Of a stretch of DNA of 64,000 nucleotides, positions 12-25,464 are shown in pieces. The position numbers were made by a program, and so were the translations under genes. The stretch comes from Escherichia phage T4: the sequence record OZ209023.1; one strand, written 5' to 3'. The notes beneath the pieces are model-generated. The model searched no databases. It was not told the origin of the DNA and was given only the letters and a program-made list of their open reading frames with translations. The stretch's first letter is position 1; the number at the start of each line of letters is the position of its first letter.

Positions 12-2189
12 TTAGGCCGCAAGGGCCTTCATAGTTTTAGCGATTTGGGAAACTTCATCATCACTTAAAGAGTTGCGATAACCGATGAAGTCGGAAACAA
101 TACGGAATTTCTTGGTAAACTCAGCAACCATTTTATCACTGTTTTTTGAAGCATTATTTGATAATACATCAAAAAGATTAGTTACTGTCCAAATGTCATG
201 ACCGATGGTATCTTTTCCACCATTAAAATATACACCCTGTAATGAACTAACCATATTAGCGAGTCGTGTATATTCTTCAGAAACTTCATCTATACTGAAG
301 TACTTCATCATAAAATCTAACTCAGGATACTTGATAATTTTATCAATATATCGTTTAGCTGAACTTGAATAACCTACATACTTATCATAATCTACATCAT
401 CAAAAGCATCTACATATAAATCACGCAAAGCTTCAAAAATACATTGGCACTGACCGAGTTCTTTTACCTTTTTCTGTAAAAGCGGACGAATAACATAAAA
501 TTCATTAATGCCAATAAGATTAGCCATACGAATCAAAATATTCATAGATGGATGACAAAGAGATGTAGTACCATCCATAGAGAAAATATCAGAACGATGC
601 ATATACGCTACATAACCAGTAATTTCATCTGCTTCTGATGTGAGCGTAAATAATTCCTCTTTTTCCCAGCGCCCGTCTTTAATTTCAAACTTAAACGCTG
701 TAGCAGCTTTAGGACGAGGAGCTTTACTTTTAACTACCTTTGGAATATAACTTTTTACTAAAGCTTCAATTTCTGACAAATAATGAATGTTAACTTCATC
801 ACTTTCAAACATCGCCATAATATCAGGAAGCAAATCAATCTGCGATTCTACTTCTGGATTAATAAACAGAAGACGTTCGTTATGATGAATATTCAAAGTG
901 TTATTAAATTCACTATCATCTAACGCACGTGCTAATCCACGGACAATATTAACACGATTTTTAATATTATCAATAACGATATTAATTTTTGTTGTATTAA
1001 TACCAAACAGACGATAACTTGATGCAACGGCTGAAGTTTCATGACTTTGCTTAATGCGCTTCAGTCGAGGGTCAAGATTTACTTCATACACAACTCCCGC
1101 GTTGCATAACTTACTGTCAGGTTCAAACATGCTCTGCATCTTTTTATATGACAGATTTTTAGTCGTGAATTTGACTGAATTACTAATCATATAATCTCGA
1201 GCAGAATACCCCATCTTCATCAATTCACGATATGTGTGACGAGGAGATGTAGATTCTTTAAATCGTTTTACATCTTCATTAAATGCTTTCTCACTGAGTT
1301 CTTTAACTCGTTCAATAATATTTTTACGAGTGCGATCATCCAGTGAAAGAGCCTCGCGAGATGGAGCAATATCAAGTGAACCCATTGGAAACTTAATGTA
1401 ATTCACTTCATTGCGAATGCTTAGCCAGTTACGGTCTCTAATAACACCATCGATAGGATAAACAATACCACCGTAGATAGCATATAATCCACCACGATCA
1501 GGCCAGTATCTTTCTGGATTTACACCGTAATAGTCATCAAAATCCGGAAAATAATCAATTTCGCGGTCAAGACCATTAATGATAGCCAAATCTTTGAACG
1601 GTCGCATGATATAAGAAACTTCATAAGCAAAGTTTCTAAAGTCTTTTTCTTCAACTGGAACTACGATTTCAATACCAGTTTTATCATCTGGACCCATTTC
1701 TTTTACGAATGTAGGTTTAATCTGTGGACCATCACCATCCATGTAAGCTACATAACCACGAATTTCACCTTTATGATACGAAGTAATACTAAACGTATCA
1801 GTATAACTAAACGGAGATTTAGAACCTAAACCAAATCCGCCAATAAAGTCATTAGATTCAGCTTTAGATGAACTGAAGTATGAATTATACAACCCAGGAG
1901 AATTATCATCACCTTGAATATCAAAATCACTCATACCCGGACCAAAATCTCGACAAACAAATCGTGGGTCTAAACGTCCAGGAACTTGTATGATAAATTT
2001 TTCAGGATTTCCATTAAGTGCATGAGCATCAATCATGTTAGTAATCAATTCACGGACTACTGCGCGAATCTTGTTTGTATACAAATCAGATGACAGAATT
2101 TTAAATACTTTAGGAGATGCTGTGATGCTAAATGCTTTTGATTTAGAACCATTACCAAGAATTGTTTCTTTTTCAGTGGTGATAATCAT
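12..2189 (-). CDS. rIIA: rIIA protein (membrane-associated, GHKL-type ATPase-like N-terminal region)
   Basis: 725-aa ORF; N-terminal ELITNMIDA...DFGPGM resembles Bergerat-fold ATPase motifs; length, sequence and position match T4 rIIA. Confidence 0.9.
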
Positions 2190-2199
2190 AATTTCCTCA

Positions 2200-2403
2200 T
2201 TAATTCATATTACGCTTAATAACTTCAGCAACTTCTAGTAGTTCATCTTTAGTTGCGGTGTCGGATTGAATTTTATCTCTAATATCTTTAAAGCGGGTTT
2301 TAAATTCTTCGGCTTCTCCCATATCGAAAAAGCGTTGAATGATTCTATATTCTCGATGAACTGCTTTATCAAAAAGTTCTAAATTTACTTTATATGATTT
2401 CAT
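2200..2403 (-). CDS. small hypothetical protein (rIIA.1 position)
   Basis: 67-aa ORF directly upstream of rIIA, preceded by early-promoter-like element. Confidence 0.55.
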
Positions 2404-2428
2404 TTCAATATCCTCATTTGCCCAATTA

Positions 2429-2458
2429 ATTATACCACATCCTTGTGGTAAAGTAAAC
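2429..2458 (-). promoter_or_regulatory. sigma70-type phage early promoter (-35 GTTTAC, 18-nt spacer, -10 TATAAT on minus strand)
   Basis: plus-strand gtaaac at 2453-2458 and attata at 2429-2434; A/T-rich upstream; spacer contains palindrome ccaca-tcct-tgtgg. Confidence 0.5.
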
Positions 2459-2990
2459 TACTGGCTCATCCATTCTTTACGAAGGTCAGCATTATCTCCC
2501 ATGAGCATTTCAAAAAGCTCTTTCCAGTTCTCAGGAAGTTTAACAACATCATATACTGGGTTTTGAATCATCTCACGATATTCAGATTTTTCCAAAGAGC
2601 CAAGTCCCTTAATATAACGGATGCTATGTTTAGGTAGAGCATCTTTGGCACTCTCATATTCAGCGACTGTATAAAACCATTCTTGTTTTTTACCGACCTG
2701 AGCGATGATTACAGGAGTTTTGACAAAGCGAATTCGTCCTTGCTCAAACAATTCTGGCCAATTACTAAAAAATCCGAGCAGAGAAGGATAAATAGAACCT
2801 AATCCAATAATCTCTTAATTATGAGGTATTTCTATAGATAGCCCGAAGGCTATCCATCGTGATCTGCGTCTGTCATAATAGCGACATTCGCATAGTTCAT
2901 TGAAGAGGATTTAATAGAACGACGAACATTGTTCTGCAATTTATATTTTTTCATATCAACGCTAGAAGAATCAATTTTTACAAATTTCAT
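2458..2990 (-). CDS. 60: DNA topoisomerase II small subunit gp60, decoded by ribosomal bypassing: complement(join(2458..2802,2853..2990)), 160 aa
   Basis: N-terminal ORF MKFVKIDSSS...MTDADHDG ends at GGA-TAG (2855-2850); coding resumes after landing GGA (2805-2803) with LGSIYP...FEQGRIRF; 46+114 codons. Confidence 0.9.
2803..2852 (-). other. 50-nt translational bypass (coding gap) element of gene 60
   Basis: take-off GGA followed by TAG inside a hairpin with UUCG loop (plus 2838-2853 atagcc-cgaa-ggctat), landing GGA 47 nt downstream. Confidence 0.85.
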
Positions 2991-3789
2991 TATACACCTC
3001 ATAGAACTTTTCATCAGGAATCCAACCGCGTTTAAATTCATTAAATGCTCGGCCGAATAATTTTGAATTCACAGTTATATTATTAACTGATTTCCATTTA
3101 GCAACTCCCGTTCGTTTATAATGATCGGGGTCATATTTCGTGACGTACCATTCATATAAATTTGGTATTAATTTTACAGCCTCTGGATTTGTCGCTGATT
3201 TATTATACCATGGTTTCGCTTTTTCAAGTTCAGCTGCTTTTGCAGTAGCAGCAACAGTATTTCCAATACCAACTAATTTTTCAGTTTTAATGCGTGGATC
3301 ATTAACATGAAGACGAAAAACTTCGCCCTTTTCATTTTTAAAGCATGTCATGCCTTTAATTCCAGGAAGCTTAACACCTTTATTAACACCGCACCATTCC
3401 TTTGGGTTAAATGATCCTTTAATTAATAAGGCGCATTTACCCGATTTAATACTTCTCATTAAAACTTTATCTTTCATAAAGTTTTTTGACCATTCAGATA
3501 CTGCTCTTTGATGGTAAATTCTAGCAATTTCATATAATTTACTAGAACGTAAATATTTTTCAGTGTTTAACATTCTATTCATCGCATATGCCATTTCACG
3601 ATTACGATGAATTTTATATAGTAGAAAATGTGCTAAAAAGTGTTCACGAAAAGTCAGTTTCACCAAATTTTCTTTATCATCAGAACCTCCCATTGATCTT
3701 GGAAGGATATGATGAATTTCACCCTTAAATTTAGAAACGCGGGTTTTACCCCGCACTATTAAGTCATTATAGATTTTTTCGTAATTCAC
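2971..3789 (-). CDS. mobA: freestanding HNH homing endonuclease MobA
   Basis: 272-aa ORF between genes 39 and 60; HHILPRSMGGSDDKENLV...REHF HNH motif; N-terminus MNYEKIY shared with other Mob ORFs. Confidence 0.8.
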   Translation of the reverse strand: MNYEKIYNDLIVRGKTRVSKFKGEIHHILPRSMGGSDDKENLVKLTFREHFLAHFLLYKIHRNREMAYAMNRMLNTEKYLRSSKLYEIARIYHQRAVSEWSKNFMKDKVLMRSIKSGKCALLIKGSFNPKEWCGVNKGVKLPGIKGMTCFKNEKGEVFRLHVNDPRIKTEKLVGIGNTVAATAKAAELEKAKPWYNKSATNPEAVKLIPNLYEWYVTKYDPDHYKRTGVAKWKSVNNITVNSKLFGRAFNEFKRGWIPDEKFYEVYNEICKN

Positions 3790-5320
3790 CTACTGTTATC
3801 CATTTACCATTAATCTGTACTTCATCATTTTCATTTACGATAATTGTATCGCCATTTAGCTCGAAAGTAAACCACTCGCCATCTTCTTTTTCTTCAAACG
3901 CTTTTTCACCGAGAACTAGACCAGTGATTGCGCAAATATCAAATAGTTCTTTGTTTTTAAGCATATCTGCATAAGACATACCCCAACTGTTGAGAACTTT
4001 ACCACGCAATGGATAACCACCGTGAAGTTCTTTATCACGAACATCAATAAGATATCCGATAGCCGAATCACCCTCAGTCAAGAAAAGAGTAGTATCAGCA
4101 TCTTTACCGCAAAGATTCGCTTTGATATGTTTATGAACCTTAGCTTTAGAAGCCTTTTTAGCTGCTTTAGTTTCTGCTGCTTTTTCTGCCGCCAATTTAC
4201 GAGCCAAAGCAGCTTCAATAATCGGCATTAGAATTGCTTCATTATTTAGAATAGCACGTGAAATCTTTTTAGCATCAAGTTGAATATGACTACGAATTTC
4301 GCCAAATGGAGAAGTCAAACGCTCTTTAGTTTGAGAATCAAATCGCATGTTTTTCATATCACGAACAAACATAACGATAGTCAAACATTCTTTGACACGT
4401 GCTTTAGTCACATCAATTTTGAACTTACGTTTGATTTGTGGAATAAGGTCTTCACAAATATCATCCATAGCGCAGTCAATGTGATGGCCACCATTCTTAG
4501 TATGAATGTTATTGACGTATGTTAATTGACGAAAACCATCCGGTGAACGACCAACCGCAATAGAACAATTTTCTTGCTCTTGAACAATAGCATGTTCATC
4601 ATACTGCCGTGCATATTTCTTAAAATTGCCCTGAACCTTTTTACCATTAAAGGTAAATTGAATATCAGGATAAACTACAGCAAGTGTCTGGAGACGATCC
4701 AGTGTAATGTCAAGATAAACTTGGGACAGCTCATTAGTTTCAAATGACATAAAATCAGGAATGAAAGTAACACGAGTTCCTTTCCATTTTCCAGGAATAT
4801 CTTCCCATGATTTATTTTCCATGCCATTTGAACAACGAACTACAATATTATTTTGACCGTCGCCAGTTTCACCGACAAACATCACAGAAAAAATGTTTGT
4901 CAAACTAGAACCAACACCGTTCATACCGCCGGTGACGCGTTCTTTATCATCACCAAAGTTACCACCTGCTTTTGGAATAGTCCATGCGGCAACAGGACCA
5001 GGAATTTCTTCACCGGTAGGTGTTTTAACCATCGCTTGTGGAATACCGCGACCGTTATCTTCAACTGTTACTTGATTGTTTTTAATAGTAACATTAATTT
5101 TATTCGCGAATTTAAACTTAGTACGAATACCTTCATCTACTGAGTTATCGATAATTTCATCAATAAGCTTAACAAGACCAGGTACATACTGAACACTTTC
5201 CCATTTACCAAACATAAAGCGCTCATGCGTTTCATTAGCAGAAGAGCCAATGTACATGCCACTACGCTTTTTGATATGTTCAATATCGCTCAGAATTTTA
5301 ATTTCATTCTTAATCATCAC
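3767..5320 (-). CDS. 39: DNA topoisomerase II large subunit gp39 (GyrB-like ATPase)
   Basis: 516/517-aa ORF with GHKL ATPase motifs (ELIDNSVDE, GRGIP, GGMNGVGSS); true start probably the second Met. Confidence 0.9.
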   Translation of the reverse strand: MMIKNEIKILSDIEHIKKRSGMYIGSSANETHERFMFGKWESVQYVPGLVKLIDEIIDNSVDEGIRTKFKFANKINVTIKNNQVTVEDNGRGIPQAMVKTPTGEEIPGPVAAWTIPKAGGNFGDDKERVTGGMNGVGSSLTNIFSVMFVGETGDGQNNIVVRCSNGMENKSWEDIPGKWKGTRVTFIPDFMSFETNELSQVYLDITLDRLQTLAVVYPDIQFTFNGKKVQGNFKKYARQYDEHAIVQEQENCSIAVGRSPDGFRQLTYVNNIHTKNGGHHIDCAMDDICEDLIPQIKRKFKIDVTKARVKECLTIVMFVRDMKNMRFDSQTKERLTSPFGEIRSHIQLDAKKISRAILNNEAILMPIIEAALARKLAAEKAAETKAAKKASKAKVHKHIKANLCGKDADTTLFLTEGDSAIGYLIDVRDKELHGGYPLRGKVLNSWGMSYADMLKNKELFDICAITGLVLGEKAFEEKEDGEWFTFELNGDTIIVNENDEVQINGKWITVGELRKNL

Positions 5321-5370
5321 TTATCCTCGTTTGGTTTCGGGAATATTATACTCCGGTAATCATAAAGCTA

Positions 5371-5386
5371 AAGGCCCGAAGGCCTT
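5371..5386 (-). terminator. intercistronic stable hairpin with UUCG tetraloop (mRNA stabiliser/terminator)
   Basis: plus aaggcc-cgaa-ggcctt palindrome between the lipoprotein ORF and gene 39. Confidence 0.45.
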
Positions 5387-5647
5387 TTATTTAAAACGAA
5401 TAGTTGAATCCTTAAAGAACAGCCCAGAACATACTGTTCCTTCTACTTTCTGCCCGGTAGGTCCAATAGCACGAAATCCAGTATGCTGGAAATCATTTTC
5501 AGAGCAACCGAACCAATTATATCCAGTGATTTCAATATTAGTAAAACCACTTGAAGACAAAACTTTGGTTGCATTATCAGCATCAGTACATCCTATTAAA
5601 GACACTGCTAATACTAATGCTGCAATAGAACGATTAATATATTTCAT
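5387..5647 (-). CDS. small predicted lipoprotein (39.1 position)
   Basis: 86-aa ORF; signal peptide with lipobox LIGC. Confidence 0.6.
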   Translation of the reverse strand: MKYINRSIAALVLAVSLIGCTDADNATKVLSSSGFTNIEITGYNWFGCSENDFQHTGFRAIGPTGQKVEGTVCSGLFFKDSTIRFK

Positions 5648-5649
5648 AA

Positions 5650-5826
5650 TTACCCTTTAAGCAAGTCGTAAAATCCACCATTCACATGCTTAGGAGCGGA
5701 AACTAACCGAACAGCCAGCCGATGACAATCAGGACATACATCAGTATCTCTTTCAGAAATTTTCTTGATTTTTTCGTATTCTTTTGCACAGTCTTTGGAT
5801 TGACATTTATAATCATAAAGCGGCAT
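5650..5826 (-). CDS. small zinc-ribbon protein (FmdB-like CxxC...CxxC)
   Basis: 58-aa ORF MPLYDYKCQSKDCAKEYE...CPDCH, below the ORF-track cutoff; AAGGA SD 8 nt upstream of ATG. Confidence 0.5.
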   Translation of the reverse strand: MPLYDYKCQSKDCAKEYEKIKKISERDTDVCPDCHRLAVRLVSAPKHVNGGFYDLLKG

Positions 5827-5828
5827 AA

Positions 5829-6254
5829 TTATTCCTTAAAGTAAGCTTTCAACATCTGATATAAAGACCACGCCTGATCATTATTTTCAATAGTAACTTT
5901 CATGACTGGGAATTCTGTGAAATCTTCTATTTGTTCTTGCTCTTTCTCTTCCTGCTCTTGCTCTTCAACCGCCTGATATGGATTTTCCACTTCATCAAAG
6001 AACCCAGCTTCGTTAGTAGAGAGCCAGATAAAGTTTTCGTCAAGGATATCACCGCCGGCACAACGTTTGAGTACACCTATGGATGTCATAATTTTAGTAG
6101 GACGCCCAAGATAATCAGCATCTAAAATTTTAAAAGGCTCCATACCTAAACGTCGTGCATAGATTCCGTTATCAGTATGGTCTTTAATAAAATTTTCTTG
6201 AGCTTGTTTATTTTTAAATTGATACCATTTATTAACTTCAAATTTAATAGCCAT
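5829..6254 (-). CDS. hypothetical protein with acidic C-terminal tail
   Basis: 141-aa ORF, compact minus-strand packing. Confidence 0.55.
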
Positions 6255-6469
6255 TAATAAATTTCCTTCCAGTAAGTTGTGCCGTCTTCAGTAATTTCAC
6301 GAAATACACCATAAATTGGCTGTTTATCACCGACTTTCTCATACACATAAACAGAAGTCAAGTGAGTAAACTTGCTAGTATGTTCCTTTTGAACTACTAC
6401 CAAATTTGGATCAAATAATACATCTTCAAATTCATCATTAGTGCAATTCTGAACAATTTTACGTTTCAT
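6254..6469 (-). CDS. hypothetical small protein
   Basis: 71-aa ORF; stop/start overlap with downstream gene. Confidence 0.5.
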
Positions 6470-6639
6470 TACAATTTCCTCATTAATTGAACAGTGGAGC
6501 GATACGTTTCAGAAGAGTATCAACACCTTTAGCGAATTTTCCATTTTATTCTCCAAGTTGTTTTCTGTATCAGTAGTTGATATTGATATAGTACCATAAT
6601 CAACTACTGATGTATATAGTTTTATGAAAAATTTAAACT

Positions 6640-7128
6640 TTATGCATAGAGAGCATTGCTATAGTGTTTAATCCAACTTTCAGGAATGACTTTGTATGTT
6701 CCTAAAAATACCACGTTGTACAACTTAACACCATCTTCTACCCATTGATCGGTAATGTATCCACACATAGCGCGAGTATAAACAACCCTTCCATCATCTT
6801 TAATAAAGTTAAATTCACAAGGAGCAATGAACTTGATAGCCTGACCGAGTTTCCACTTAAAGTCTACACCTACATGCGAAGTATCAATCGTTTCAATTCC
6901 TTTAGCAGGAACAGCTTTTAAAAACGCAGACTCAAGAAATTTCGCACGAACATAGCCAAACTGGGGTTTAGACTTTCCATCTTTAGGAATGATACGCACT
7001 TTTACTTCAGAATCTTCATCTTTAACACCATGCTTAAGCTGAATGCTTACAACTTCGACCAATTTTCCTGCTGCTTTAGAACGGGATTTATCAGATACAC
7101 GAGCTAATTCACCAATATTAATAATCAT
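6640..7128 (-). CDS. hypothetical protein (positionally equivalent to T4 motB)
   Basis: 162-aa ORF; C-terminal domain paralogous to the next ORF (GYITDQWVEDGVKLYNVV). Confidence 0.55.
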   Translation of the reverse strand: MIINIGELARVSDKSRSKAAGKLVEVVSIQLKHGVKDEDSEVKVRIIPKDGKSKPQFGYVRAKFLESAFLKAVPAKGIETIDTSHVGVDFKWKLGQAIKFIAPCEFNFIKDDGRVVYTRAMCGYITDQWVEDGVKLYNVVFLGTYKVIPESWIKHYSNALYA

Positions 7129-7172
7129 AGTTATCTCTCACTTGTTAAAAAGATTTTATACTCCACGGGACC

Positions 7173-7202
7173 ATTATACTCTGGTCCCAAGAGTTTGTAA
7201 AC
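7173..7202 (-). promoter_or_regulatory. early promoter (GTTTAC / TATAAT on minus strand)
   Basis: plus gtaaac 7197-7202, attata 7173-7178; -10 lies in the loop of palindrome gggacc...ggtccc (7167-7188). Confidence 0.5.
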
Positions 7203-7204
7203 TA

Positions 7205-7636
7205 TTAATTCAAAATAGCTACCACTGCACTACGAGGAACTACGGAGTACTCTCCAGCATGAACTACGTTCAGAAGTTCAACGCCATCTTCAATCCATTG
7301 GTCAGTTACCCAACCACCAATCGGATTCGCAAATGGACGACGAATGTAAACTGCCTTACACAACAAATCAGTCGGGTCTTCAGGTTTTTCAATTTCTGTC
7401 AATAGATTAAAATCTTCTTCATAGATGATGAATGATGATACCCTTCCATAATAGTTTCTAATTTCCATGTACACTGTACCAATGAGAATTCCACTATTAA
7501 CACTAATGACAGTAAAAGGATATCCGCCAGTTGTACCAAGAAGTTCCCAAAATTTGCTATCAGTCGTATTCGACATTGTCTGAAAATCAATTTCAGATGG
7601 TTTTTTCATTTGATACGCAGTATTAATTTTAATCAT
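7205..7636 (-). CDS. hypothetical protein, paralogue of the downstream motB-like ORF
   Basis: 143-aa ORF; shared C-terminal motif GGWVTDQWIEDGVELLNVV. Confidence 0.55.
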   Translation of the reverse strand: MIKINTAYQMKKPSEIDFQTMSNTTDSKFWELLGTTGGYPFTVISVNSGILIGTVYMEIRNYYGRVSSFIIYEEDFNLLTEIEKPEDPTDLLCKAVYIRRPFANPIGGWVTDQWIEDGVELLNVVHAGEYSVVPRSAVVAILN

Positions 7637-7646
7637 AATTTTCTCT

Positions 7647-8186
7647 TTAGTTTAAGGTAATAAAGCCTTTTAGTTCGGCATAGGATTTACGGAACATTAC
7701 TTGATGCCCGCCAATGATAACTTGGTCATCTGGTACTTCGTATACAGCAAGATAAAATCCTTTCGAAGCTAATTCTTCACGCTCTTCTCGTGTGAACCAT
7801 TTCATCATATCATATTCGCTAGCAAAAGCAAAATGATAAAGAGCTACAAACCATCCGGGAATATGATATTCTACTCCAACATAATCTTTCTTGAACTTAG
7901 TATTAATTACGATATTAGCATTTTTAACTAATAGTTTGTCTTCGTGCGGCACAGGAATTCTTTTATTATCATTACTATGATGCATAAAATTAGGTCTGTC
8001 ATAACCTACATGTAATAACCACTCTTCACTCCATGAATCTATTATACTTCTATACGGCGTTATTTGAACACAAAGATCTCGGCGTATTGTTATAGCGTCT
8101 TCATAATTAAGAATACTAAACGATGATTCAACACGATAAATTTTCATTTTATTATCCTCAGTAGCTATGGTGTTATAGTACCACAA
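7647..8186 (-). CDS. hypothetical protein
   Basis: 179-aa ORF. Confidence 0.55.
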   Translation of the reverse strand: MWYYNTIATEDNKMKIYRVESSFSILNYEDAITIRRDLCVQITPYRSIIDSWSEEWLLHVGYDRPNFMHHSNDNKRIPVPHEDKLLVKNANIVINTKFKKDYVGVEYHIPGWFVALYHFAFASEYDMMKWFTREEREELASKGFYLAVYEVPDDQVIIGGHQVMFRKSYAELKGFITLN

Positions 8187-8204
8187 CTAACCGAGGAAGT
8201 AAAC
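8175..8204 (-). promoter_or_regulatory. early promoter (GTTTAC / TACTAT variant -10)
   Basis: plus gtaaac 8199-8204 and atagta 8175-8180, 18-nt spacer. Confidence 0.45.
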
Positions 8205-8210
8205 AACTTT

Positions 8211-8894
8211 TTATCGTTTTGTTGGAAGAGATAGAGGATCGCATTCTTCCTCTGATGGAGCATCTTCAAGACCCATAGCATATCGCAAAGCATACTTCAT
8301 CATCAGGATGTCTTTCGCACAGTCATGAATAGAATCATGTGCAACGAATCCATCTAAAGTTCCCTTTGGAAGAAGACACGTTGTCATATCACGAACAAGC
8401 AGAAGTGCTTCAATTCTAGTACGAATATCACGCTGATTCCAAAATTTACAAGGTTCTAACTTAAATGTATCAAGCTCATTCTCGGAAACGCCGTTAAGAC
8501 GTTGAATATCGCGAATAAGATCGACTAAAATTGGAAAATCAAACGACATTCCACGGCACCAGCCTTGAGATTTCCAAGGATCGATATTATGTGCATTGAT
8601 GTAATCATTAAATTTTGCAATACCGTCGATAGTGCTTACATCTTCATCGGATGGTGCAATATTTTTTCGAGCTTCAGGAGATTGATTCTTCCACCATTCG
8701 ATAGTACTTTTAGTAAAAAGACGGTGTCCTTTTTGGCTTTTTAAATCAAATTTGATTTTAATGCCACGTGAAACTAATTCATCGAATGTTTCAACTACTT
8801 CTGGATTAGGGTCAAAAGCAATTACAGCCAAATCAATAACCGCTGCTTTTTCACCACTTCCCATTGTTTCAAAATCTATAATAAAATCAAACAT
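8211..8894 (-). CDS. dexA: exonuclease A (DEDD-family 3'-5' exonuclease)
   Basis: 227-aa ORF; N-terminal FDFIIDFETMG exonuclease motif; length matches T4 DexA. Confidence 0.85.
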   Translation of the reverse strand: MFDFIIDFETMGSGEKAAVIDLAVIAFDPNPEVVETFDELVSRGIKIKFDLKSQKGHRLFTKSTIEWWKNQSPEARKNIAPSDEDVSTIDGIAKFNDYINAHNIDPWKSQGWCRGMSFDFPILVDLIRDIQRLNGVSENELDTFKLEPCKFWNQRDIRTRIEALLLVRDMTTCLLPKGTLDGFVAHDSIHDCAKDILMMKYALRYAMGLEDAPSEEECDPLSLPTKR

Positions 8895-9151
8895 TAAATT
8901 TTCCTCGCTAAATCACGAATTTGACCTACAGTATAGTCTTGAATATAAACTTTATTAATAGGCTCATCAATAAATTTTGCCATAGATTCAATATCTTTTT
9001 GTATTTCTTCAAGACTGTATACTATCTTTGAAGCTTTTTCGCGAATAGTGATATTTTCAGGACCCGGATTTTCTTGAATGACAACTTTAACATTTGTCAT
9101 AAGAGATTTAAACTGGTACCAACTTAATTCAATCATTAATAATCGCCTCAT
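8894..9151 (-). CDS. hypothetical small protein
   Basis: 85-aa ORF; paralogous to adjacent 86-aa ORF (shared LEEI..D motif). Confidence 0.5.
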   Translation of the reverse strand: MRRLLMIELSWYQFKSLMTNVKVVIQENPGPENITIREKASKIVYSLEEIQKDIESMAKFIDEPINKVYIQDYTVGQIRDLARKI

Positions 9152-9389
9152 AAAGATAGCTAATTTCGCCTAAAACATAATCATTGATTGTAACAGTTTT
9201 AACTTCACCGCAAAAGAATTCTAACGCAATTAAATCTCGTTCAATTTCTTCTAATTGAAGCATCAACTTACTAGATTCAATTTTTACAGTTTCACGATTT
9301 TTGCTATAAGCTATTTCATAAATTTCGCTTACTTTATCTTGAAGAAGATAAAACTGATCTTTAGTTATTTCCACGAATAGCTTCCTCAA
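9129..9389 (-). CDS. hypothetical small protein
   Basis: 86-aa ORF. Confidence 0.5.
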   Translation of the reverse strand: MRKLFVEITKDQFYLLQDKVSEIYEIAYSKNRETVKIESSKLMLQLEEIERDLIALEFFCGEVKTVTINDYVLGEISYLYEAIIND

Positions 9390-9395
9390 ATTTAA

Positions 9396-10715
9396 TCATA
9401 CATAAAACACATCATAACGACCACGGGTGACACCAACATAAAGAAGTTGTTGAGCTAATTCAGCATCTGCATAATGAATACAAGGCGTATAAATGAAAGC
9501 ACGGTCTACAGACATACCCTGCGCTTTATGGAATGTTGATGTAGGAAGTGCTTTCACTTTACTAAACTGTGATTTAGCATCCCAAAAATCACTCCACGGA
9601 GCTTTTCCGCCTTTGTTCCAATTTTTATAAGTTTCTGCTGTTTTACCTAAAAATAGGTTAAACTTATACAATTCTTCGTCAGATGAAATTATTTTAATCT
9701 TTTCACGATAATATTCATCATCGCCATAAGTTTCTACTGTTAAATCCCAATGACGAATTAGATATTCTCCAGGAACACCACGGGCTTTAACAAACGTTGA
9801 TGTATACTCTGCTTCTATAATACGAACTAATTGTCCGTTATTAAAAATAATTTCTGACACAGGCTTTCCATCAATTTTATATGTTTTAATTAATGGTTCC
9901 TGCATTACAATAATTTCACCGACAATAAAATCTTTATCAGTTTCAAAAATCTTTTTACGAATAATGCTATTTAACTTGTCAACAGATTTATTCGTAAATG
10001 CCATTACGCGATTTTCAAACAAATCATCTAGTGATTTGACGATTGAAAAATAATTTACCATAAAATCGCGTAAAGCGGTATCACCAGTAAATCCACGTAC
10101 TCCATGCCCGTCAACAACTTTATCATAAATCCACTTACCGTTGCGAACGTCAGTAGCTACATCAATAATAGGAGCATTACTGCGTTTAACTTCAGTGAGT
10201 TCACACTGATAAAAATCTTTATGTGTAAAGAATGGACTGATATAAGCAGTATTTTCTCCTGGGTCAACAGGTCTGATTTGCTTATTATCCCCTATTCCAA
10301 TTATAGTACACCAAGGTGGAATAGTTGAAAGCAGAATTTTAAATAGCTTTCTATCATACATTGACACTTCGTCGCAGATTAATACTCTGCATTTGGCTAA
10401 ATCAGGTACTTCTTTTTGTTCAAAAAGAACATTTTCTTCATATGTTACTGGGTTAATTTTAAGAATACTATGAATAGTACTCGCTTCTTTCCCTGATAGT
10501 TTTGAAAGAATCTTTTTAGCTGCATGTGTAGGAGCTGCTAAAATAATACCAGTTTCACCCGTAGATATTAAAGCTTCAATGATGAACTTAGTAAGAGTAG
10601 TCTTACCGGTACCAGCAGGTCCATTAATAGTTACATGATGTTTCTTTTCTTTAATAGCCTTCATAACAATGTTAAAGGCATTTTTCTGGCCTTCGGTCAA
10701 ATCATCAAATGTCAT
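9396..10715 (-). CDS. dda: Dda DNA helicase (SF1B)
   Basis: 439-aa ORF; Walker A GPAGTGKT; length matches T4 Dda. Confidence 0.9.
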   Translation of the reverse strand: MTFDDLTEGQKNAFNIVMKAIKEKKHHVTINGPAGTGKTTLTKFIIEALISTGETGIILAAPTHAAKKILSKLSGKEASTIHSILKINPVTYEENVLFEQKEVPDLAKCRVLICDEVSMYDRKLFKILLSTIPPWCTIIGIGDNKQIRPVDPGENTAYISPFFTHKDFYQCELTEVKRSNAPIIDVATDVRNGKWIYDKVVDGHGVRGFTGDTALRDFMVNYFSIVKSLDDLFENRVMAFTNKSVDKLNSIIRKKIFETDKDFIVGEIIVMQEPLIKTYKIDGKPVSEIIFNNGQLVRIIEAEYTSTFVKARGVPGEYLIRHWDLTVETYGDDEYYREKIKIISSDEELYKFNLFLGKTAETYKNWNKGGKAPWSDFWDAKSQFSKVKALPTSTFHKAQGMSVDRAFIYTPCIHYADAELAQQLLYVGVTRGRYDVFYV

Positions 10716-11023
10716 CGTAAATTCCCTGCAATTGGTATACTAACAATACGCCCAGTATCTAAAATTCGCTGATATAATCTTTGCGTGTCTACGTCAGGCT
10801 TAACATGTTTAACTTCTATTTTATTAAACCAAAATTTACGTGGAGTCTCAACTAATCTTGGAATTCCCTTACCTAAAGCTAATCGATACTGCTCTTTAAG
10901 AGTGGTAAATACTTTATCAGCAATCTTCCATTCAAAAAATACAGCAGGACGATGTTCATCAAGCGGAACTGGCGCTGTAAATCCGTCTTTGTCTCGGTAA
11001 ACTATCGCATATACATAAACCAT
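10712..11023 (-). CDS. hypothetical protein
   Basis: 103-aa ORF overlapping dda start by 4 nt. Confidence 0.5.
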   Translation of the reverse strand: MVYVYAIVYRDKDGFTAPVPLDEHRPAVFFEWKIADKVFTTLKEQYRLALGKGIPRLVETPRKFWFNKIEVKHVKPDVDTQRLYQRILDTGRIVSIPIAGNLR

Positions 11024-11024
11024 A

Positions 11025-11771
11025 TTATCCTCGGATAAGTTTAAAAATTGAACAATTTAGCGGATATCCTCTTTTCAGTTTAAGTTTATCAATAAAAGAC
11101 AAATTTTGATACCGCTCTACACCTTGAATAATTTTATCACACATATCATATTGCATTTCTGCTTCTGACAACTTTTTCACAATTTTCCAATCCGAGCCTT
11201 TAAGAAGAACGTTCAATTTAACAACTTCAGCGCCTTCTGCTATGCGAGAACCATCAATACGTGCTTTAAGTGCTATAATTCTCAGCTTAATGTCAGAGGT
11301 CTGTTTTGATTTAGAAAGCTGAGAAATGTGTTCAATTCGATTTTCACGTTTTTTCTGTATAGCTTTAATTTGATTATAAGTCTTTTTGATTTTAGCCCAT
11401 TTCTTTTCATCTAAATTTAGTTTATGAACTTTTTTCGCAGATGAACGACCAATTCGCAAAGCAAATAAATCACGCTTTTCAATCAACTCTTCTAAAGTAT
11501 AATCAGAACGAAATGTATTATACTTTTTCTTTACTGCAATAACATTCCCTTTAATGTATCCAACGTTATTATCAAAACGTTCTAATGATAATTTCTCTCC
11601 TTCAATACGATTATCAAAAGGTTCTCCCGAGTAAGCACAAACTTTTTGATCTAAAATGTTCTTAATGTAATTGAAGTCTAAGTTAAAATCTTTAGAACGT
11701 CTTTTTGCAGATGCCTGAGTATGCTCTAAACGACGTTTAATTTTACGAATTTGGTTATTAGACAGCTTCAT
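11025..11771 (-). CDS. hypothetical basic protein (positionally equivalent to T4 srd)
   Basis: 248-aa ORF with early promoter upstream. Confidence 0.5.
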   Translation of the reverse strand: MKLSNNQIRKIKRRLEHTQASAKRRSKDFNLDFNYIKNILDQKVCAYSGEPFDNRIEGEKLSLERFDNNVGYIKGNVIAVKKKYNTFRSDYTLEELIEKRDLFALRIGRSSAKKVHKLNLDEKKWAKIKKTYNQIKAIQKKRENRIEHISQLSKSKQTSDIKLRIIALKARIDGSRIAEGAEVVKLNVLLKGSDWKIVKKLSEAEMQYDMCDKIIQGVERYQNLSFIDKLKLKRGYPLNCSIFKLIRG

Positions 11772-11807
11772 ATTTTTCTCACATCTTACGGACGGTTAAC
11801 TACTTAT

Positions 11808-11837
11808 ACTATAACATTTTTACTTTAACTTGTAAAC
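11808..11837 (-). promoter_or_regulatory. early promoter (GTTTAC / TATAGT)
   Basis: plus gtaaac 11832-11837, actata 11808-11813. Confidence 0.45.
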
Positions 11838-11893
11838 AACTTTATGAAAAATGCTTTAAAACTTTCATGGTATAATGAATCTAAGTCCTTCCA

Positions 11894-12496
11894 TTATAGA
11901 TTAAATCCTTCAAAATCAAGAGTATAGATAGTGTATGTTGAACACTTTTTATACTCATATCTATCTGCAATTCTAAATACACTTCCAGCTGGTATCATTA
12001 CTTCTTGTTCATCTGAAACTAATTCCATATTACGATAACGATGACTATCCGGAAACTTAAAGTTTGGATTGTATTCTTTACAGCGTAGAGCTTTTATAGC
12101 ATACTCCTGGAAATTGAATACCATAGGAGCTTTGAATTCAAAAATAACTTGTGTGTTATACTCTAAACCAGAAGCAAAATGTAGAGCTATATTTTTATCA
12201 TATGAAGCTGATACGACTTTATCAAATGTAATAATATCAATTCCTTGATTTAATACTTGTTTAGTCTCAGCTGGAACACCTCTCCAAAGAGGTTTATCGT
12301 TTGGAACCAAACGAGATTTGATTATTTCATTTAACCAAGAATGGTCATCTGGTTTATTAGTAATACAATGAATTAAAAGTTCAATTTCAGATAAATTAAA
12401 CCCTTCAGAAAGTAATTCTTCACGAATAGAAGCACGCACCGATGCATCCATTGATTTTATTTTAAAATCTTTTAGTTGCATTACTGAGTATTTCAT
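11894..12496 (-). CDS. modA: ADP-ribosyltransferase ModA
   Basis: 200-aa ORF; R-S-E ADP-ribosyltransferase signature (LWRG ... EQEVMIPAG); paralogous to adjacent ModB. Confidence 0.75.
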   Translation of the reverse strand: MKYSVMQLKDFKIKSMDASVRASIREELLSEGFNLSEIELLIHCITNKPDDHSWLNEIIKSRLVPNDKPLWRGVPAETKQVLNQGIDIITFDKVVSASYDKNIALHFASGLEYNTQVIFEFKAPMVFNFQEYAIKALRCKEYNPNFKFPDSHRYRNMELVSDEQEVMIPAGSVFRIADRYEYKKCSTYTIYTLDFEGFNL

Positions 12497-13116
12497 TCAA
12501 CTACCTCAATATCATAAACTTTAAATGTTCCAAATGAATCGTGTAATTTTTCTTTTGAAATAGAAGTTATTTTATACTTTCCAATTGGAATCATCCATTC
12601 TTGTTCACGCACAATCATCATTAAGTTATCAGTACGCTCTGAATCTAATCCATCAGTATCTTCATACGTGTACTTAAACTCAGTATTAGGAGAAGAAAGT
12701 ATAATATCGCTGATATGGTCAGAATAATTAAAAGCTTTATCAGTTTTTAAACGAAGTATTGTTTCAGTGAAATATTCAGCATAAGAAAAAGAACACGCTG
12801 TATGCAAACTAGTAGTAAATGAATCTACCCTGTTCGTTGAAAACACTTCTCCAACTTGTAAATCTTTAATGAGTTCTTTTGTCGATTTTGATATACCACG
12901 ATATAATTGATAAGGCGATTTAGTTAAATGCTTTTTAATGATTTCATTTAAATGCTTATGAAGAGCTTCATTCTTTTTGGCTTCCATACATTGCCAAAGA
13001 ACAGACTGCTCAAAGTCAGTAAATTTTTCACAGACCTTTTTATACATATCATATTGAAAATCAACGCTTTCAGCTTTTATAGATAACTGTTCAACATCTG
13101 CAAGATTAATAATCAT
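12493..13116 (-). CDS. modB: ADP-ribosyltransferase ModB
   Basis: 207-aa ORF; LYRG ... EQEWMIPIG; 4-nt overlap with modA start. Confidence 0.75.
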   Translation of the reverse strand: MIINLADVEQLSIKAESVDFQYDMYKKVCEKFTDFEQSVLWQCMEAKKNEALHKHLNEIIKKHLTKSPYQLYRGISKSTKELIKDLQVGEVFSTNRVDSFTTSLHTACSFSYAEYFTETILRLKTDKAFNYSDHISDIILSSPNTEFKYTYEDTDGLDSERTDNLMMIVREQEWMIPIGKYKITSISKEKLHDSFGTFKVYDIEVVE

Positions 13117-13142
13117 GATAGCCTCCGTATACTTCAGAAGCT

Positions 13143-13172
13143 ATCATATCATCGTTAGAAAGGAAAGTAAAC
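13143..13172 (-). promoter_or_regulatory. early promoter (GTTTAC / TATGAT)
   Basis: plus gtaaac 13167-13172, atcata 13143-13148. Confidence 0.4.
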
Positions 13173-13183
13173 AACTTTTTGAA

Positions 13184-13366
13184 TTATTTTGCCCAGGGAG
13201 CCCAAGGCGGAGGGTCAAGATGGTATGAAGCTAGTTCTTCTAGAAGAGCATCTGGGGCTTCAATTCCATAATTCTGTAATACTATACGGTACTCTTTCTT
13301 ATAATCACTAGAATCATTCTGGTTATTCGTAGAATGATTATCTTCTAACATCTCAAATAAATCCAT
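13184..13366 (-). CDS. hypothetical small protein
   Basis: 60-aa ORF. Confidence 0.45.
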   Translation of the reverse strand: MDLFEMLEDNHSTNNQNDSSDYKKEYRIVLQNYGIEAPDALLEELASYHLDPPPWAPWAK

Positions 13367-13374
13367 ATTAATTC

Positions 13375-13845
13375 CTAGCGATAAAAACCAAATTTACGAT
13401 TAGTTTCAATGATCTTTCTTTCTTCTTCGGACATTCTCCAGCGTAGTCCAACATCAAAATGAGCCCAGACCATCCTAACAAATGCATTTATATCTTTAAT
13501 ATCTTCAATAATGAATGTTTTACTTTTAGAAGGTTGACTCGCTAATTTAACTTTATCGTCTTCAAACATGTCAAAAAGACCATATTCATGAGCTCTTTTA
13601 TAGCCTTTAATAGTTAAAGCTTCAGAAGAAGAAAATGGTGAATCTGTATTCTGCAAAATATCTTCAGTATGCTTTATAATTAGAATAATATTTTCTGGAT
13701 ATTTTCTTTCTTTTATATCTTTAATTAAAAAATCCGGATTTTCTGCTAAAGGAATAATTAATGAGCAATTTTTATCAAGTGTATTTACTGATTTACCTTC
13801 TTTAGACATAAATTCTATTGAATATAATTTTGCTACTTCAATCAT
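13375..13845 (-). CDS. hypothetical protein
   Basis: 156-aa ORF. Confidence 0.5.
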
Positions 13846-13998
13846 GTGATTTCCTTTTGCCTACTAATGGACCGTCAGGAATTTTATTTTCCTGGATATA
13901 TTTCTCATTTTCTTCCATCATTTTACTGCCAATTTTAAGAAGCAAATCCATTGCTTCATTTGCTTTTGCTTTAGCTTCTTCTAACGTCATATCTTTGT

Positions 13999-14202
13999 TC
14001 ATGATTTATCACCATAGATGTCTCTCATCAATTTAAGCGCTGAGCGTTCTAGTTTCTTTTCTTTCTCAGCACTAATCATTGATTTCATCCATTCTTCTGA
14101 TTCATTCTGCATTTCTTTATTTGCTTGTTCAACCCAACCGTCATCAATATACATTGAGTTTGGTCTATTGAACCATTCAAGCATCTTCTTCAGAACTTTC
14201 AT
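13999..14202 (-). CDS. hypothetical small protein
   Basis: 67-aa ORF. Confidence 0.45.
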
Positions 14203-14674
14203 TCGTTTTACCTAAAACAATAGTAGGAGCATCGTCAAATTTATGAATTTTTAGCAAATTTGGATTTAAATTATTCCATAAAGAGGTAATAAAATATGAT
14301 AGCGCACTTTCGTCCGTAATTATAAATTTATTTCCTTTATCTATTTTCCAATCATATATTGAATCATATGAATAGAAGGATAACGGTTTATTATTATAAT
14401 ATGCTTCAGCAACATCAATATAGTTAGATTTAGTAAATGCTTGAATTGCCATAAATGGAGAATTTTGTACAGTTTCAATAATTCCGATCTTTTTAAGTTT
14501 TATTTCAACATCTTCTGGAATTGGCATTGAAATAAAATCTTCTACTAGATACATATTATTGTCATATCTTTTATCAATCATTACTGCTACAGTAATTGGA
14601 ACATCCTTGACAAACGCCATACTAATACTATTGATAGACATTTCAAACAAAATTGCTTCCATAATTTTCCTCAA
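14177..14674 (-). CDS. hypothetical protein
   Basis: 165-aa ORF. Confidence 0.5.
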
Positions 14675-15012
14675 TCACAAGATGTAGATGAACAACTAGA
14701 ATCACAAGAACTTCCACATGAATCACCTGCCCATACATGAACAGGAACATTAGTATCATATGAATCAGAACTAGACTGTGTATTCTGTGTGTTAGATGAT
14801 GTAGTAGGTGTTGACCAGCGCCAAGGATTTTTATAATATTCTTGGGCTTCTTCATAAGTCATAGTAACTGCTTCTACTGTTCCATCTCCCATATAAACAT
14901 ATTCAACTACAGTTAAAGGAAGGTAGTCATTTGAAATAGGAACTACACCTTCCCCAGGAGTTGTAGAGAAAAAATCCGTAAAGAAACTTTTAAACCAATT
15001 AAAGATAAACAT
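14671..15012 (-). CDS. hypothetical protein with N-terminal hydrophobic segment and Cys/Ser-rich C-terminal tail
   Basis: 113-aa ORF ending [18 protein letters not shown]. Confidence 0.5.
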
Positions 15013-15218
15013 TACAAAAAGCCTCTTTTGAATTCGACTTGCTTCTCACCATAATCATATCGAATCTCTGCATTAAATTCGACAGAACCATCTGCGTACA
15101 TCATAAATGAATGCACAACAACTTCTGTAGACCATGGTTGTAGTTCATATTTCTTCATTACATGTCGTGAAATGATAATATCTAAATCTTCATTTGGTTT
15201 AATCCAACGATTTAACAT
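15012..15218 (-). CDS. hypothetical small protein
   Basis: 68-aa ORF. Confidence 0.45.
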   Translation of the reverse strand: MLNRWIKPNEDLDIIISRHVMKKYELQPWSTEVVVHSFMMYADGSVEFNAEIRYDYGEKQVEFKRGFL

Positions 15219-15244
15219 AGTACTCTCCTCTATAAGATAATTCT

Positions 15245-15274
15245 ATTATACCATACTCATTTTGGAAAGTAAAC
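15245..15274 (-). promoter_or_regulatory. early promoter (GTTTAC / TATAAT)
   Basis: plus gtaaac 15269-15274, attata 15245-15250. Confidence 0.5.
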
Positions 15275-15289
15275 CATTTAAATGAAAAA

Positions 15290-15309
15290 AGGACTCCCGA
15301 AGGAGTCCT
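15290..15309 (-). terminator. rho-independent terminator after soc (UUCG-loop hairpin + U-tract)
   Basis: plus aggactcc-cgaa-ggagtcct followed on the minus strand by TTTTTTT. Confidence 0.6.
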
Positions 15310-15316
15310 TGAGTTA

Positions 15317-15559
15317 TTAACCAGTTACTTTCCACAAATCTTCATTTGCAGCAATCCATTCAGTACGTTGATTTTCTTCATATACTGTAGAATATGCTGC
15401 TTTTTCTGAAGGGAATGTCTGGTAATGAGCGCCAGAAATTTTGTGAACGTCAGAATAAAGAGGGAAAGCTACAGAAATTTCCTTTCCTTCAATTTTCTTA
15501 TTTCCATCTAATTTCTGCTCAAATGTTTTGATATTAACATAACCGCGAGTACTAGCCAT
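15317..15559 (-). CDS. soc: small outer capsid protein Soc
   Basis: 80-aa ORF MASTRGYVNIKTFEQ...; recognised sequence. Confidence 0.9.
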   Translation of the reverse strand: MASTRGYVNIKTFEQKLDGNKKIEGKEISVAFPLYSDVHKISGAHYQTFPSEKAAYSTVYEENQRTEWIAANEDLWKVTG

Positions 15560-15588
15560 GTAATTCTCCTTTATTTAAATTACATGAT

Positions 15589-15596
15589 TATTTATA
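15589..15596 (-). promoter_or_regulatory. T4 late promoter TATAAATA upstream of soc
   Basis: plus tatttata = minus TATAAATA, about 30 nt upstream of soc ATG. Confidence 0.5.
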
Positions 15597-16281
15597 CATC
15601 TTCTTTTCTGAATAAGTAAATTAAATTCTTAAGAGCCGAACTTGTTACATCATATTTTCCTTTAAGCGCCTTTACAACCGGGCCTGTTGCTGGTTTACCT
15701 AAAGAAACCCATAACTCGTGTATTTCGCTTTTAAGTGGTTCATGCCAATGCGGTGCTTTTCTTTGCGCCCTTGAAGTTCCTTCTGAAATCTTTTTATTTC
15801 CGCCATTCGAATAAAACTTTTTCATTACTTCAGATTGCCGAGCTTTTCTTTCTGCCCTATTTTGGGCTATACGTTGTGAATTCTTCATCCGAGTTTTTGT
15901 TTCAGGATTGTTTAATCTAAGTTTATGTTCTAATCGTTGTTGCTCAGTCCATTTTCTTCCTTCTCCACCCTGACCACCAGGAGAAATATTAATGCAAGTA
16001 TCTGGGTGTTTACGTTTTAATGCAGATATTAGCTCACGTTCAACTTCATATGATTTTTCTCTAGAACCATGGCATTTTGACCATCGTATTTTATAATTAA
16101 ATCCATACTTACGATATATGTTCCATAGTATTTTACCTGAACCCGGATATTTATCATTATATGGATTTACAATAAATGATTCATGTTTCCCAGCGTACCA
16201 AAAGACGCCTTTCGGCGTCCTAACTTTTACTATATATGTTCTATAAAATTTTTGTTTAATATCCATTATCTTGACGTTCAA
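15592..16281 (-). CDS. segF: GIY-YIG homing endonuclease SegF
   Basis: 224-229-aa ORF; GIY-YIG-like N-terminus (YIVKVRT...FWYAGKH); located between soc and gene 56; start may be the internal Met at 16266. Confidence 0.65.
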   Translation of the reverse strand: MNVKIMDIKQKFYRTYIVKVRTPKGVFWYAGKHESFIVNPYNDKYPGSGKILWNIYRKYGFNYKIRWSKCHGSREKSYEVERELISALKRKHPDTCINISPGGQGGEGRKWTEQQRLEHKLRLNNPETKTRMKNSQRIAQNRAERKARQSEVMKKFYSNGGNKKISEGTSRAQRKAPHWHEPLKSEIHELWVSLGKPATGPVVKALKGKYDVTSSALKNLIYLFRKEDV

Positions 16282-16771
16282 AATTATGTTTGTTCTTCAG
16301 ATAATAAAGTTTAAAGATTTCTTCCGCATTCATTCCAAGGCCAACAAACATATTTAATACGAAATGAAATATATCCACAAGCTCAAATTTAATTTCGAGC
16401 TGGTCTTCGGGGGACATTTCATCAATGCGTTTTTCTTGCGCTTCAATATAACGTGCTTTCCATTTTTTCCATACAGCAGAAGCTTCTTTTTCACCACGTG
16501 ACATTTCACCAAGAGAAGTCAGAAGTTCGCGGAATTCATCATCAATACAGTCTTTTTGTTCACGCATCCAAGAAACAACATCACCGGCAGTTTCTAATTT
16601 ATCTGGATGATAGCAGTATTCGCGGACATTAGCCAAACGAATCTGTAAAGACCGCTGCATATCAAGCATAACTTGCAGCGGATCTTTTTCATCACCGAGA
16701 ATATCCCAGTATTCATTTTGAGCTTTATCAACACCTTCGATCAAATGAGCACATTCATTAAAGTGAGCCAT
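16256..16771 (-). CDS. 56: dCTP pyrophosphatase gp56 (MazG-like)
   Basis: ORF MAHFNECAHLIEG..., 171 aa from the Met at 16771; recognised sequence. Confidence 0.85.
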   Translation of the reverse strand: MAHFNECAHLIEGVDKAQNEYWDILGDEKDPLQVMLDMQRSLQIRLANVREYCYHPDKLETAGDVVSWMREQKDCIDDEFRELLTSLGEMSRGEKEASAVWKKWKARYIEAQEKRIDEMSPEDQLEIKFELVDIFHFVLNMFVGLGMNAEEIFKLYYLKNKHNFERQDNGY

Positions 16772-16831
16772 TAGTTTTCCTTTCAATTCATTAATAAGTT
16801 AAATAATTATATCATTTGAGTATGTAAGCAA

Positions 16832-17620
<789 letters not shown>

Positions 17621-17723
17621 TCATTTATTGCAGCAAAAATGAATTATACAATTCTTCATCATATGTATTTGATAGTAATACTAACACGTTTTGCGATAAA
17701 TATTAATTTAAAGGAGGATATAT

Positions 17724-17924
17724 ATGGTACAAAAATTAATGGCACTTGTTAATGCCATAAAAGGTAATAAGAAACGTATAGCTTTTACTATTTCTGCTAT
17801 GGTAGGAATTTTACTCTGGAACTTTATTTTATCACCTGTTGCAATTGCACATGGTGTTAATATTCCAGTAGTTACTCTTGATACATTCGTAGATTTAGCA
17901 TTTGCTTTAGTTGGGTTAATTTAA
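17724..17924 (+). CDS. candidate small membrane protein on the opposite strand
   Basis: 66-aa ORF with consensus SD AGGAGG 7 nt upstream of ATG; hydrophobic sequence; in the dam-61 intergenic region. Confidence 0.4.
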   Translation: MVQKLMALVNAIKGNKKRIAFTISAMVGILLWNFILSPVAIAHGVNIPVVTLDTFVDLAFALVGLI

Positions 17925-18949: not shown

Positions 18950-19117
18950 TTTTACTCTTCTTTTTCTTTAGATTCCTCTTTTTTCTTTTTAGGAATCTGT
19001 TCAGGACCTTTATTTACTACAGCGCCTGATGTTGTTCCAGTAGAGATATTTTCAGGATTACCACCTGAATCTCCAGCGACCATATCTTCTTTGATAAATT
19101 CTTTAAATGTTTTCATA

Positions 19118-20037: not shown

Positions 20038-20097
20038 GATAATCTCCTCAGTAGTTTATGTTTATATAGTATCTCAATTTCCAACAAAAGTAAACAG

Positions 20098-20539: not shown

Positions 20540-20568
20540 AACAATCTCCTCATTTAACCGACAAGACT

Positions 20569-22025: not shown

Positions 22026-22034
22026 ACTTACTCC

Positions 22035-23547: not shown

Positions 23548-23555
23548 ATAATACC

Positions 23556-25441: not shown

Positions 25442-25464
25442 ATTATTCCTTTTATGTTAAACGA

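Follow-up and report, generated by a model that had tools for sequence, protein, structure and literature searches.

The window analysed here is a stretch of 64,000 nucleotides of Escherichia phage T4 DNA (sequence record OZ209023.1), and the genes and features around gene 60 are listed in Table 1. The genes follow the order gene 39, mobA HNH endonuclease, gene 60, and mobA shares 23 nt with the 3' end of gene 39 and 20 nt with the 5' end of gene 60. The HNH match of MobA (E = 7e-4) falls just below the Pfam cut-off. An intact mobA ORF of 272 aa is present in the window and in 11 re-sequenced T4-type records; in NC_000866.4/AF158101.6 mobA is split into '60.1' and a 'defective' mobA, and gene 39 is shifted. 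Comparison of NC_000866.4 with the first 6 kb of the window shows 15 mismatches and 19 gap positions, and the old reference is therefore the outlier. The mobA of laboratory T4 was still termed a pseudogene in a 2022 preprint (10.1101/2022.08.31.505936). Directly after the gene 60 stop and upstream of rIIA.1 lies a sigma-70-like promoter match (2429..2457, minus strand; TTTACT, 17 nt, TATAAT, with an upstream TG, 10/12), which is the best of seven in 2150..5500, fewer than the 12.5 expected from shuffled sequence.

Table 1. Genes and sequence features at the gene 60 locus, in window coordinates.
Feature	Position	Strand	Basis or remark
rIIA	12..2189	-	ORF list
rIIA.1	2200..2403	-	ORF list
Gene 60 segment 2, codons 47-160 + stop	2458..2802	-	translation; annotation
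50-nt non-coding gap including UAG and landing GGA	2803..2852	-	misc_feature in NC_000866.4 and T4T
Landing codon GGA	2803..2805	-	decoding restarts at UUA 2802..2800 (Leu47)
GAG, mini Shine-Dalgarno, 6 nt 5' of landing codon	2812..2814	-	sequence; role from literature
Take-off stem-loop, 10 bp, UUCG 2847..2844; apical 6 bp 2853..2838	2834..2857	-	fold
GGG in hairpin, cognate codon without wild-type landing use	2842..2844	-	sequence; non-use from literature
UAG directly after take-off codon	2850..2852	-	sequence
Take-off codon GGA, Gly46	2853..2855	-	sequence
Gene 60 segment 1, codons 1-46	2853..2990	-	translation; first join piece in NC_000866.4 and T4T
Predicted 5' stem-loop (UGCG/CGCA + UGUCG/UGACA)	2865..2892	-	minimum-free-energy fold
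Codons 14-30 (KKYKLQNNVRRSIKSSS), nascent-peptide bypass signal	2901..2951	-	translation; role from literature
mobA, HNH homing endonuclease, 272 aa, intact	2971..3789	-	ORF list, annotation, Pfam
Shine-Dalgarno GAGG, 6 nt upstream of gene 60 ATG, inside mobA 3' end	2997..3000	-	sequence
Gene 39, N-terminal part of split topoisomerase II large subunit	3767..5317 (517-aa ORF 3767..5320)	-	HATPase_c, DNA_gyraseB
Joined gp60, bypass product			160 aa, about 18.6 kDa, G46-L47 junction
Tryptic peptide expected over gp60 junction			SSSMNYANVAIMTDADHDGLGSIYPSLLGFFSNWPELFEQGR

When 2400..3100 is read on the minus strand, ATG 2990..2988 is the start of gene 60, whose first segment comprises 46 codons (MKFVKIDSSSVDMKKYKLQNNVRRSIKSSSMNYANVAIMTDADHDG), the last of which is GGA (2855..2853), followed by TAG (2852..2850). 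The landing GGA is found at 2805..2803, with a spacing of 47 nt (2852..2806) between both GGA codons, and the frame past it (LGSIYPSLLGFFSNWPELFEQGRIRF...) closes at the stop 2460..2458. By convention the coding gap is counted from the UAG through the landing GGA and is thereby 50 nt long (2852..2803). Each reading frame is closed inside the gap, frame 0 by two UAG codons and frames +1 and +2 by one UAA each. Apart from the landing codon, GGN triplets occur in the gap only as the overlapping pair GGG/GGC at 2844..2841, within the hairpin. The GAG at 2814..2812 is followed by AUUAUU and then by the landing GGA, and the nascent-peptide signal at residues about 14-30 (KKYKLQNNVRRSIKSSS, including KKYK) is present in the first segment. 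An earlier sequence-only reading of this DNA had claimed that the first frame stops after codon 46 with GGA-TAG and that a second GGA 47 nt downstream leads into an ORF continuing the protein; translation from ATG 2990 and the coordinates agree with both claims. The arrangement that it had named as contrary to its proposal, two segments in the same frame with no gap, does not occur, as the segments lie in different frames (50 mod 3 = 2 by a scripted check) and are separated by the 50-nt gap. It had also stated that an ORF finder splits the gene into 2850..3041 and 2458..2751, and the ORF list contains exactly these two. The start assigned to the first is an ATG further upstream, within mobA, while gene 60 really starts at ATG 2990; the second is given an internal TTG as its start, while coding really restarts at position 2802.

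Alignment to T4 gene 60, which the same reading had put forward as a check, gave 100% identity over the 701 nt of 2400..3100 to 13 T4-type records, mostly at the same coordinates; these include NC_000866.4, AF158101.6, T4T HM137666.1, KJ477684-6 and MT984581.1. The same 50 nt are found in about 40 related phages at 97-99.6% identity. Both NC_000866.4 and T4T give gene 60 as join(2458..2802, 2853..2990) and label 2803..2852 "non-coding translational bypass region in mRNA", so that the proposed match to the programmed 50-nt bypass is borne out by the annotation of T4 records at the same coordinates. Because 2400..3100 is 100% identical to the T4 references at the same coordinates, chance is not at issue, and the window corresponds to the beginning of a T4 genome. 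Judged by its sequence, the region is almost certainly the canonical T4 gene 60 programmed translational bypass, and none of the results obtained speaks against this. This bypass, or 'hop', was first described in 1988. It is reviewed in Atkins 2016 (PMC5009743). The gene 60 bypass in the window is intact, already known and the founding example of its class, and it presents no new biology. The warning that naive annotation would miss the gene was also justified, with several GenBank records giving two separate CDS or 'hypothetical proteins'. Many T4-like records carry the gene 60 homologue as two 'DNA topoisomerase' CDS, and mis-annotation is widespread: the homologues in Thanatos-1 (MT457552.1, 2399..2927) and UoN_LG358_1 (OK570374.1, 501..1028) are separate 'hypothetical protein' CDS, and the GenBank record of Pm5461 likewise has two separate CDS.

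Elsewhere in the window there are several differences from T4T. At 36720 to 36721, 1065 bp are absent (T4T HM137666.1 36721..37785), corresponding to most of the alpha-glucosyltransferase gene a-gt (T4T 36611..37813), and the deletion junction reads GGTCAG joined to CTCGAGCC. This junction is spanned by none of the 503 matching phage records, and the source is therefore a T4 derivative absent from the phage collection. In b-gt, codon 327 (24461..24463, minus strand) is changed from CAA to TAA, which converts Q327 to ochre and truncates the roughly 351-aa beta-glucosyltransferase; the 181-nt stretch around this codon has no phage record matching at 100%, the best match being 99.4%. The TGA at b-gt codon 341 is T4T-specific. 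Together, the a-gt deletion and the b-gt ochre codon suggest a glucosylation-deficient laboratory strain of T4. Over 722..41320 the window differs from T4T at fifteen single positions, most of the changes being G:C to A:T transitions, and missense differences from T4T are found in rIIA, dexA, dda, segF, sp, imm.1, gene 43 (G52S, G354D), gene 44 (S18F), mobB and 55.9.

The joined 160-aa product of gene 60 matches Pfam TOPRIM_C above the cut-off (E = 6e-8). Phage T2 has one uninterrupted gene 39 of 605 aa, and comparison of T2 gp39 with T4 gp39 plus joined gp60 reveals no indel at the position between G46 and L47 (...MTDADHDG-LGSIYPSLL..., the hyphen marking the junction). Across the junction T2 gp39 reads ...NIAIMTDADHDGLGSIYPSLLGFF..., or in longer form ...NIAIMTDADHDGLGSIYPSLLGFFSNWPELFEQGRIRF.... 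In PDB 8yo3 and related entries, residues 517-676 of the T4 gp39-gp60 chain have exactly the sequence of the joined gp60, which is also colinear with T6 gp39 (PDB 8ylu). Residues 1-46 of the joined gp60 are those of PDB 5np6 chain C (46/46), the nascent chain of the take-off-stalled ribosome. According to the structural paper, the natural three-subunit enzyme and a gp39-gp60 fusion both relax DNA. Segment 2, as predicted from its sequence, completes the Toprim/C-terminal part of the topoisomerase II large subunit.

Folding of 2862..2828 as RNA gives a 10-bp stem (2857..2834) closed by a UUCG loop (2847..2844), with a free energy of -14.7 kcal/mol and a z value of -4.54 relative to dinucleotide shuffles, 1 of 200 of which was as stable. 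The hairpin with a UUCG tetraloop that had been claimed at 2838-2853 is thus present and forms part of this longer stem, which takes in the take-off codon. Upstream, a 5' stem-loop is predicted at 2892..2865, where the fold of 2905..2856 has a free energy of -10.8 kcal/mol and a z value of -1.6, which alone is not significant; a 5' stem-loop has been described at the same position (10.1101/2022.08.31.505936; Agirrezabala 2017, PMC5462505). For the published 3' stem-loop past the landing site, no stable fold was recovered in 2812..2760 (z = +0.96). Because the sequence is identical to that of T4, the published 5' and 3' stem-loops should both be present. The take-off hairpin was also considered as an intrinsic terminator and rejected, as there is no T-run and CUAUAGAAAU comes next; a terminator scan of 2150..5500 gave no terminator-like site at 2834..2857. 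The only matches of 2400..3100 to Rfam at E <= 10 were four snoRNA/miRNA entries at chance level. The bypass element is not represented by any Rfam family and is therefore without an independent model-based match.

The gap itself is covered in only 59 of the 693 phage records that match 2740..2920; the remaining matches (e.g. T2) are downstream only, with a fused gene 39. A tblastn search of the phage collection with the 46-aa N-terminal peptide yielded 73 carrier records from Escherichia, Salmonella, Shigella, Proteus, Acinetobacter, Aeromonas and Shewanella phages, from which seven distinct lineages were taken and tabulated (Table 2). In all seven lineages a single tRNA can read both the take-off and the landing codon, and in all seven the junction restores DxDxDG-x-GS(I/F)(Y/F)P. 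One-tRNA codon pairs across lineages are predicted by re-pairing and are not required by reinitiation or splicing. In six lineages the take-off codon is situated in a stable hairpin whose stem varies by compensatory changes, these being seen in S16, Pm5461, fHyAci03 and Thanatos-1, and the hairpin of the seventh, Aes012, is weak and reduced. Six of the seven lineages have an SD-like triplet (GAG, or GGG in Aes012) 5-7 nt upstream of the landing codon, and none is found at that distance in Thanatos-1. The seven-lineage table reproduces Manning and Atkins (10.1101/2022.08.31.505936) and is corroboration, not discovery. The Acinetobacter and Shewanella cassettes were considered as a new observation, and this was dropped because they were already described by Manning and Atkins 2022. 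A scan of IMG/VR for GAYTAGCCTTNGGGCTA was likewise discarded: its 15 loci were unrelated hairpins without gene 60-like coding context, the pattern being too unspecific. In Pm5461 (KP890823.1, about 636..690) the gap is in frame and the UAG is its sole in-frame stop; simple UAG readthrough, an alternative to hopping in this phage, would add 17 residues.

Table 2. Take-off and landing codons and gap lengths in seven phage lineages.
Lineage	Take-off / landing	Gap	Remark
T4	GGA / GGA	50 nt	
Salmonella S16 (and UoN_LG358_1)	GGU / GGC	48 nt	
Proteus Pm5461	GGG / GGA	51 nt	
Aeromonas Aes012	GAC / GAC	17 nt	
Acinetobacter Stupor	GGU / GGC	42 nt	AGG, no stop, after take-off
Acinetobacter fHyAci03	GAU / GAC	43 nt	
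Shewanella Thanatos-1	GGU / GGU	52 nt	

Four other explanations for the split gene were weighed against programmed bypass. It is exceedingly improbable that the 50 nt represent an intron, or that splicing or processing takes them out of the mRNA in some other way. Group I introns do occur elsewhere in T4 (e.g. nrdD with I-TevII, annotated), but a self-splicing intron needs far more than 50 nt, and no intron is among the Rfam matches to 2400..3100 at E <= 10. The gene 60 mRNA keeps the full 50 nt according to the original literature. Moreover, a defined, unspliced gene 60 mRNA shows bypass in reconstituted systems, and the structure of the take-off ribosome holds the gap hairpin in the A site (PMC5462505; PMC6551183). 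Termination at the UAG followed by reinitiation would produce two independent polypeptides that assemble. The 46-aa product does exist, as roughly every second ribosome fails to complete the hop (10.1101/2022.08.31.505936; PMC5462505), and the SD-like GAG lies within the gap; however, the resume frame has no ATG, GTG or TTG from the gap until TTG 2751, and reinitiation at that TTG would drop the conserved GSIYPSLLGFFSNWPEL, which is colinear with T2/T6 gp39. Reinitiation also needs no match between the take-off and landing codons, yet the match is kept in seven lineages, and we regard this explanation as highly improbable.

A further explanation is that the segments are joined at GGA-UAG by conventional programmed frameshifting or by readthrough of the stop. 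Segment 2 is indeed in another frame, and the supposed shift site is followed by a stop, as it is in prfB-type +1 frameshifting, and readthrough draws some support from the Proteus homologue, whose 51-nt gap is in frame with one in-frame stop. In the T4 sequence, however, no single shift at the take-off site reaches segment 2, frameshifting and readthrough are impossible because each of the three frames meets a stop in the gap, and a product with gap-encoded residues would break the colinearity with T2/T6 gp39; the chance that either accounts for gp60 is minute. It is close to inconceivable that a sequencing error or an inactivating mutation has left gene 60 as a pseudogene. ORF calling does yield two fragments, and some records annotate separate or hypothetical proteins, but the same 50 nt are found at 100% in 13 independently deposited T4-type records, homologous gaps are kept in distant phages, and structures have been solved for the joined protein, which functions as a topoisomerase subunit. 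We consider splicing, frameshifting, readthrough and reinitiation excluded or very unlikely.

For the programmed bypass, the steps of the hop are inferred from published experiments on exactly this sequence, comprising biochemistry, single-molecule work and cryo-EM. As the ribosome approaches the take-off site, the nascent peptide slows the last codons, with KKYK being most important, and it also holds the peptidyl-tRNA in place and promotes the hyper-rotated state of the ribosome (10.1101/2022.08.31.505936; PMC5462505; PMC5009743); besides KKYK, the residues Y16, Q19, V22 and R24 have roles in this signal (10.1101/2022.08.31.505936; PMC5009743). EF-G would then catalyse pseudotranslocation, a movement along the gap that consumes GTP (Klimova 2019, PMC6551183), and the peptidyl-tRNA-Gly would unpair from GGA yet remain in the P site. 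The ribosome would slide across the gap, the mRNA refolding behind it and aiding forward movement. [quoted passage not shown] Contact between the GAG and the anti-SD would aid positioning, consistent with the reported assistance of landing by the GAG:anti-SD contact and downstream structure (10.1101/2022.08.31.505936), and the tRNA would re-pair at the landing GGA, with decoding restarting at UUA. Bypass is completed by about half of the ribosomes (10.1101/2022.08.31.505936). No function of bypass beyond protection from MobA cleavage is known in the gene 60 literature. That the phage makes use of the incomplete (about 50%) bypass and does not just bear it as the price of a selfish cassette, for example either to set the gp60:gp39 stoichiometry by temperature or translation status or through a functional 46-aa peptide, is conceivable but unlikely.

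Gene 60 is the classic proof that a ribosome can carry peptidyl-tRNA over 50 untranslated nucleotides, and its bypass bears on the limits of reading-frame maintenance and on annotation pipelines that split this gene. The gap and mobA together form a mobile homing-endonuclease cassette (10.1101/2022.08.31.505936), and gene 60 is thereby an example of such a cassette supplying its own recoding signal. According to Bonocora et al. 2011, as summarised in 10.1101/2022.08.31.505936, PMC5009743 and the structural paper, the cassette split an ancestral gene 39 and the gap shields its carrier from MobA cleavage.

Compared with the bypass of reference T4, the codons, gap, hairpin and nascent peptide in the window are the same and gene 60 is without any difference, whereas the genome around it is that of a T4 derivative and not the reference. 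The other MobA-cassette bypasses of the Straboviridae (S16, Pm5461, Aes012, KARL-1/fHyAci03/Stupor and Thanatos-1) share with T4 the insertion site in the Toprim DxDxDG motif and the order gene 39, HNH endonuclease, gene 60. With T4 included, a UAG follows the take-off codon in six of the seven lineages, and six have a hairpin of the CC-NNNN-GG type, which is reduced in Aes012. The homologues differ from T4 in their gaps (17-52 nt compared with 50 nt) and in their codon pairs (GGU/GGC, GGG/GGA, GAC/GAC, GAU/GAC and GGU/GGU), and their N-terminal peptides are only 52-59% identical to that of T4. In Stupor the rare codon AGG replaces the stop and the loop is GCAA, and in Thanatos-1 the loop is UUAG.

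More distant parallels are the 'byp' elements of Magnusiomyces capitatus mitochondria, which 10.1101/2022.08.31.505936 describes as non-coding inserts of 27-55 nt in protein genes. As in gene 60, the ribosome is described there as skipping from a take-off codon to a matching landing codon, and the elements as having spread by mobility. Compared by description, they differ from gene 60 in being unrelated in sequence and present in many copies per genome. Their take-off codon is followed by a sense codon without a tRNA, where gene 60 has a stop, and no nascent-peptide signal is known for them, whereas gene 60 has one. Programmed frameshifting (prfB +1, dnaX -1) resembles the gene 60 bypass in that re-pairing is aided by a slow A-site codon, mRNA structure and SD-like contacts. 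In frameshifting, however, the tRNA re-pairs on an overlapping codon after a shift of 1-2 nt, whereas in gene 60 it re-pairs 50 nt away, across a gap in which the frames are closed.
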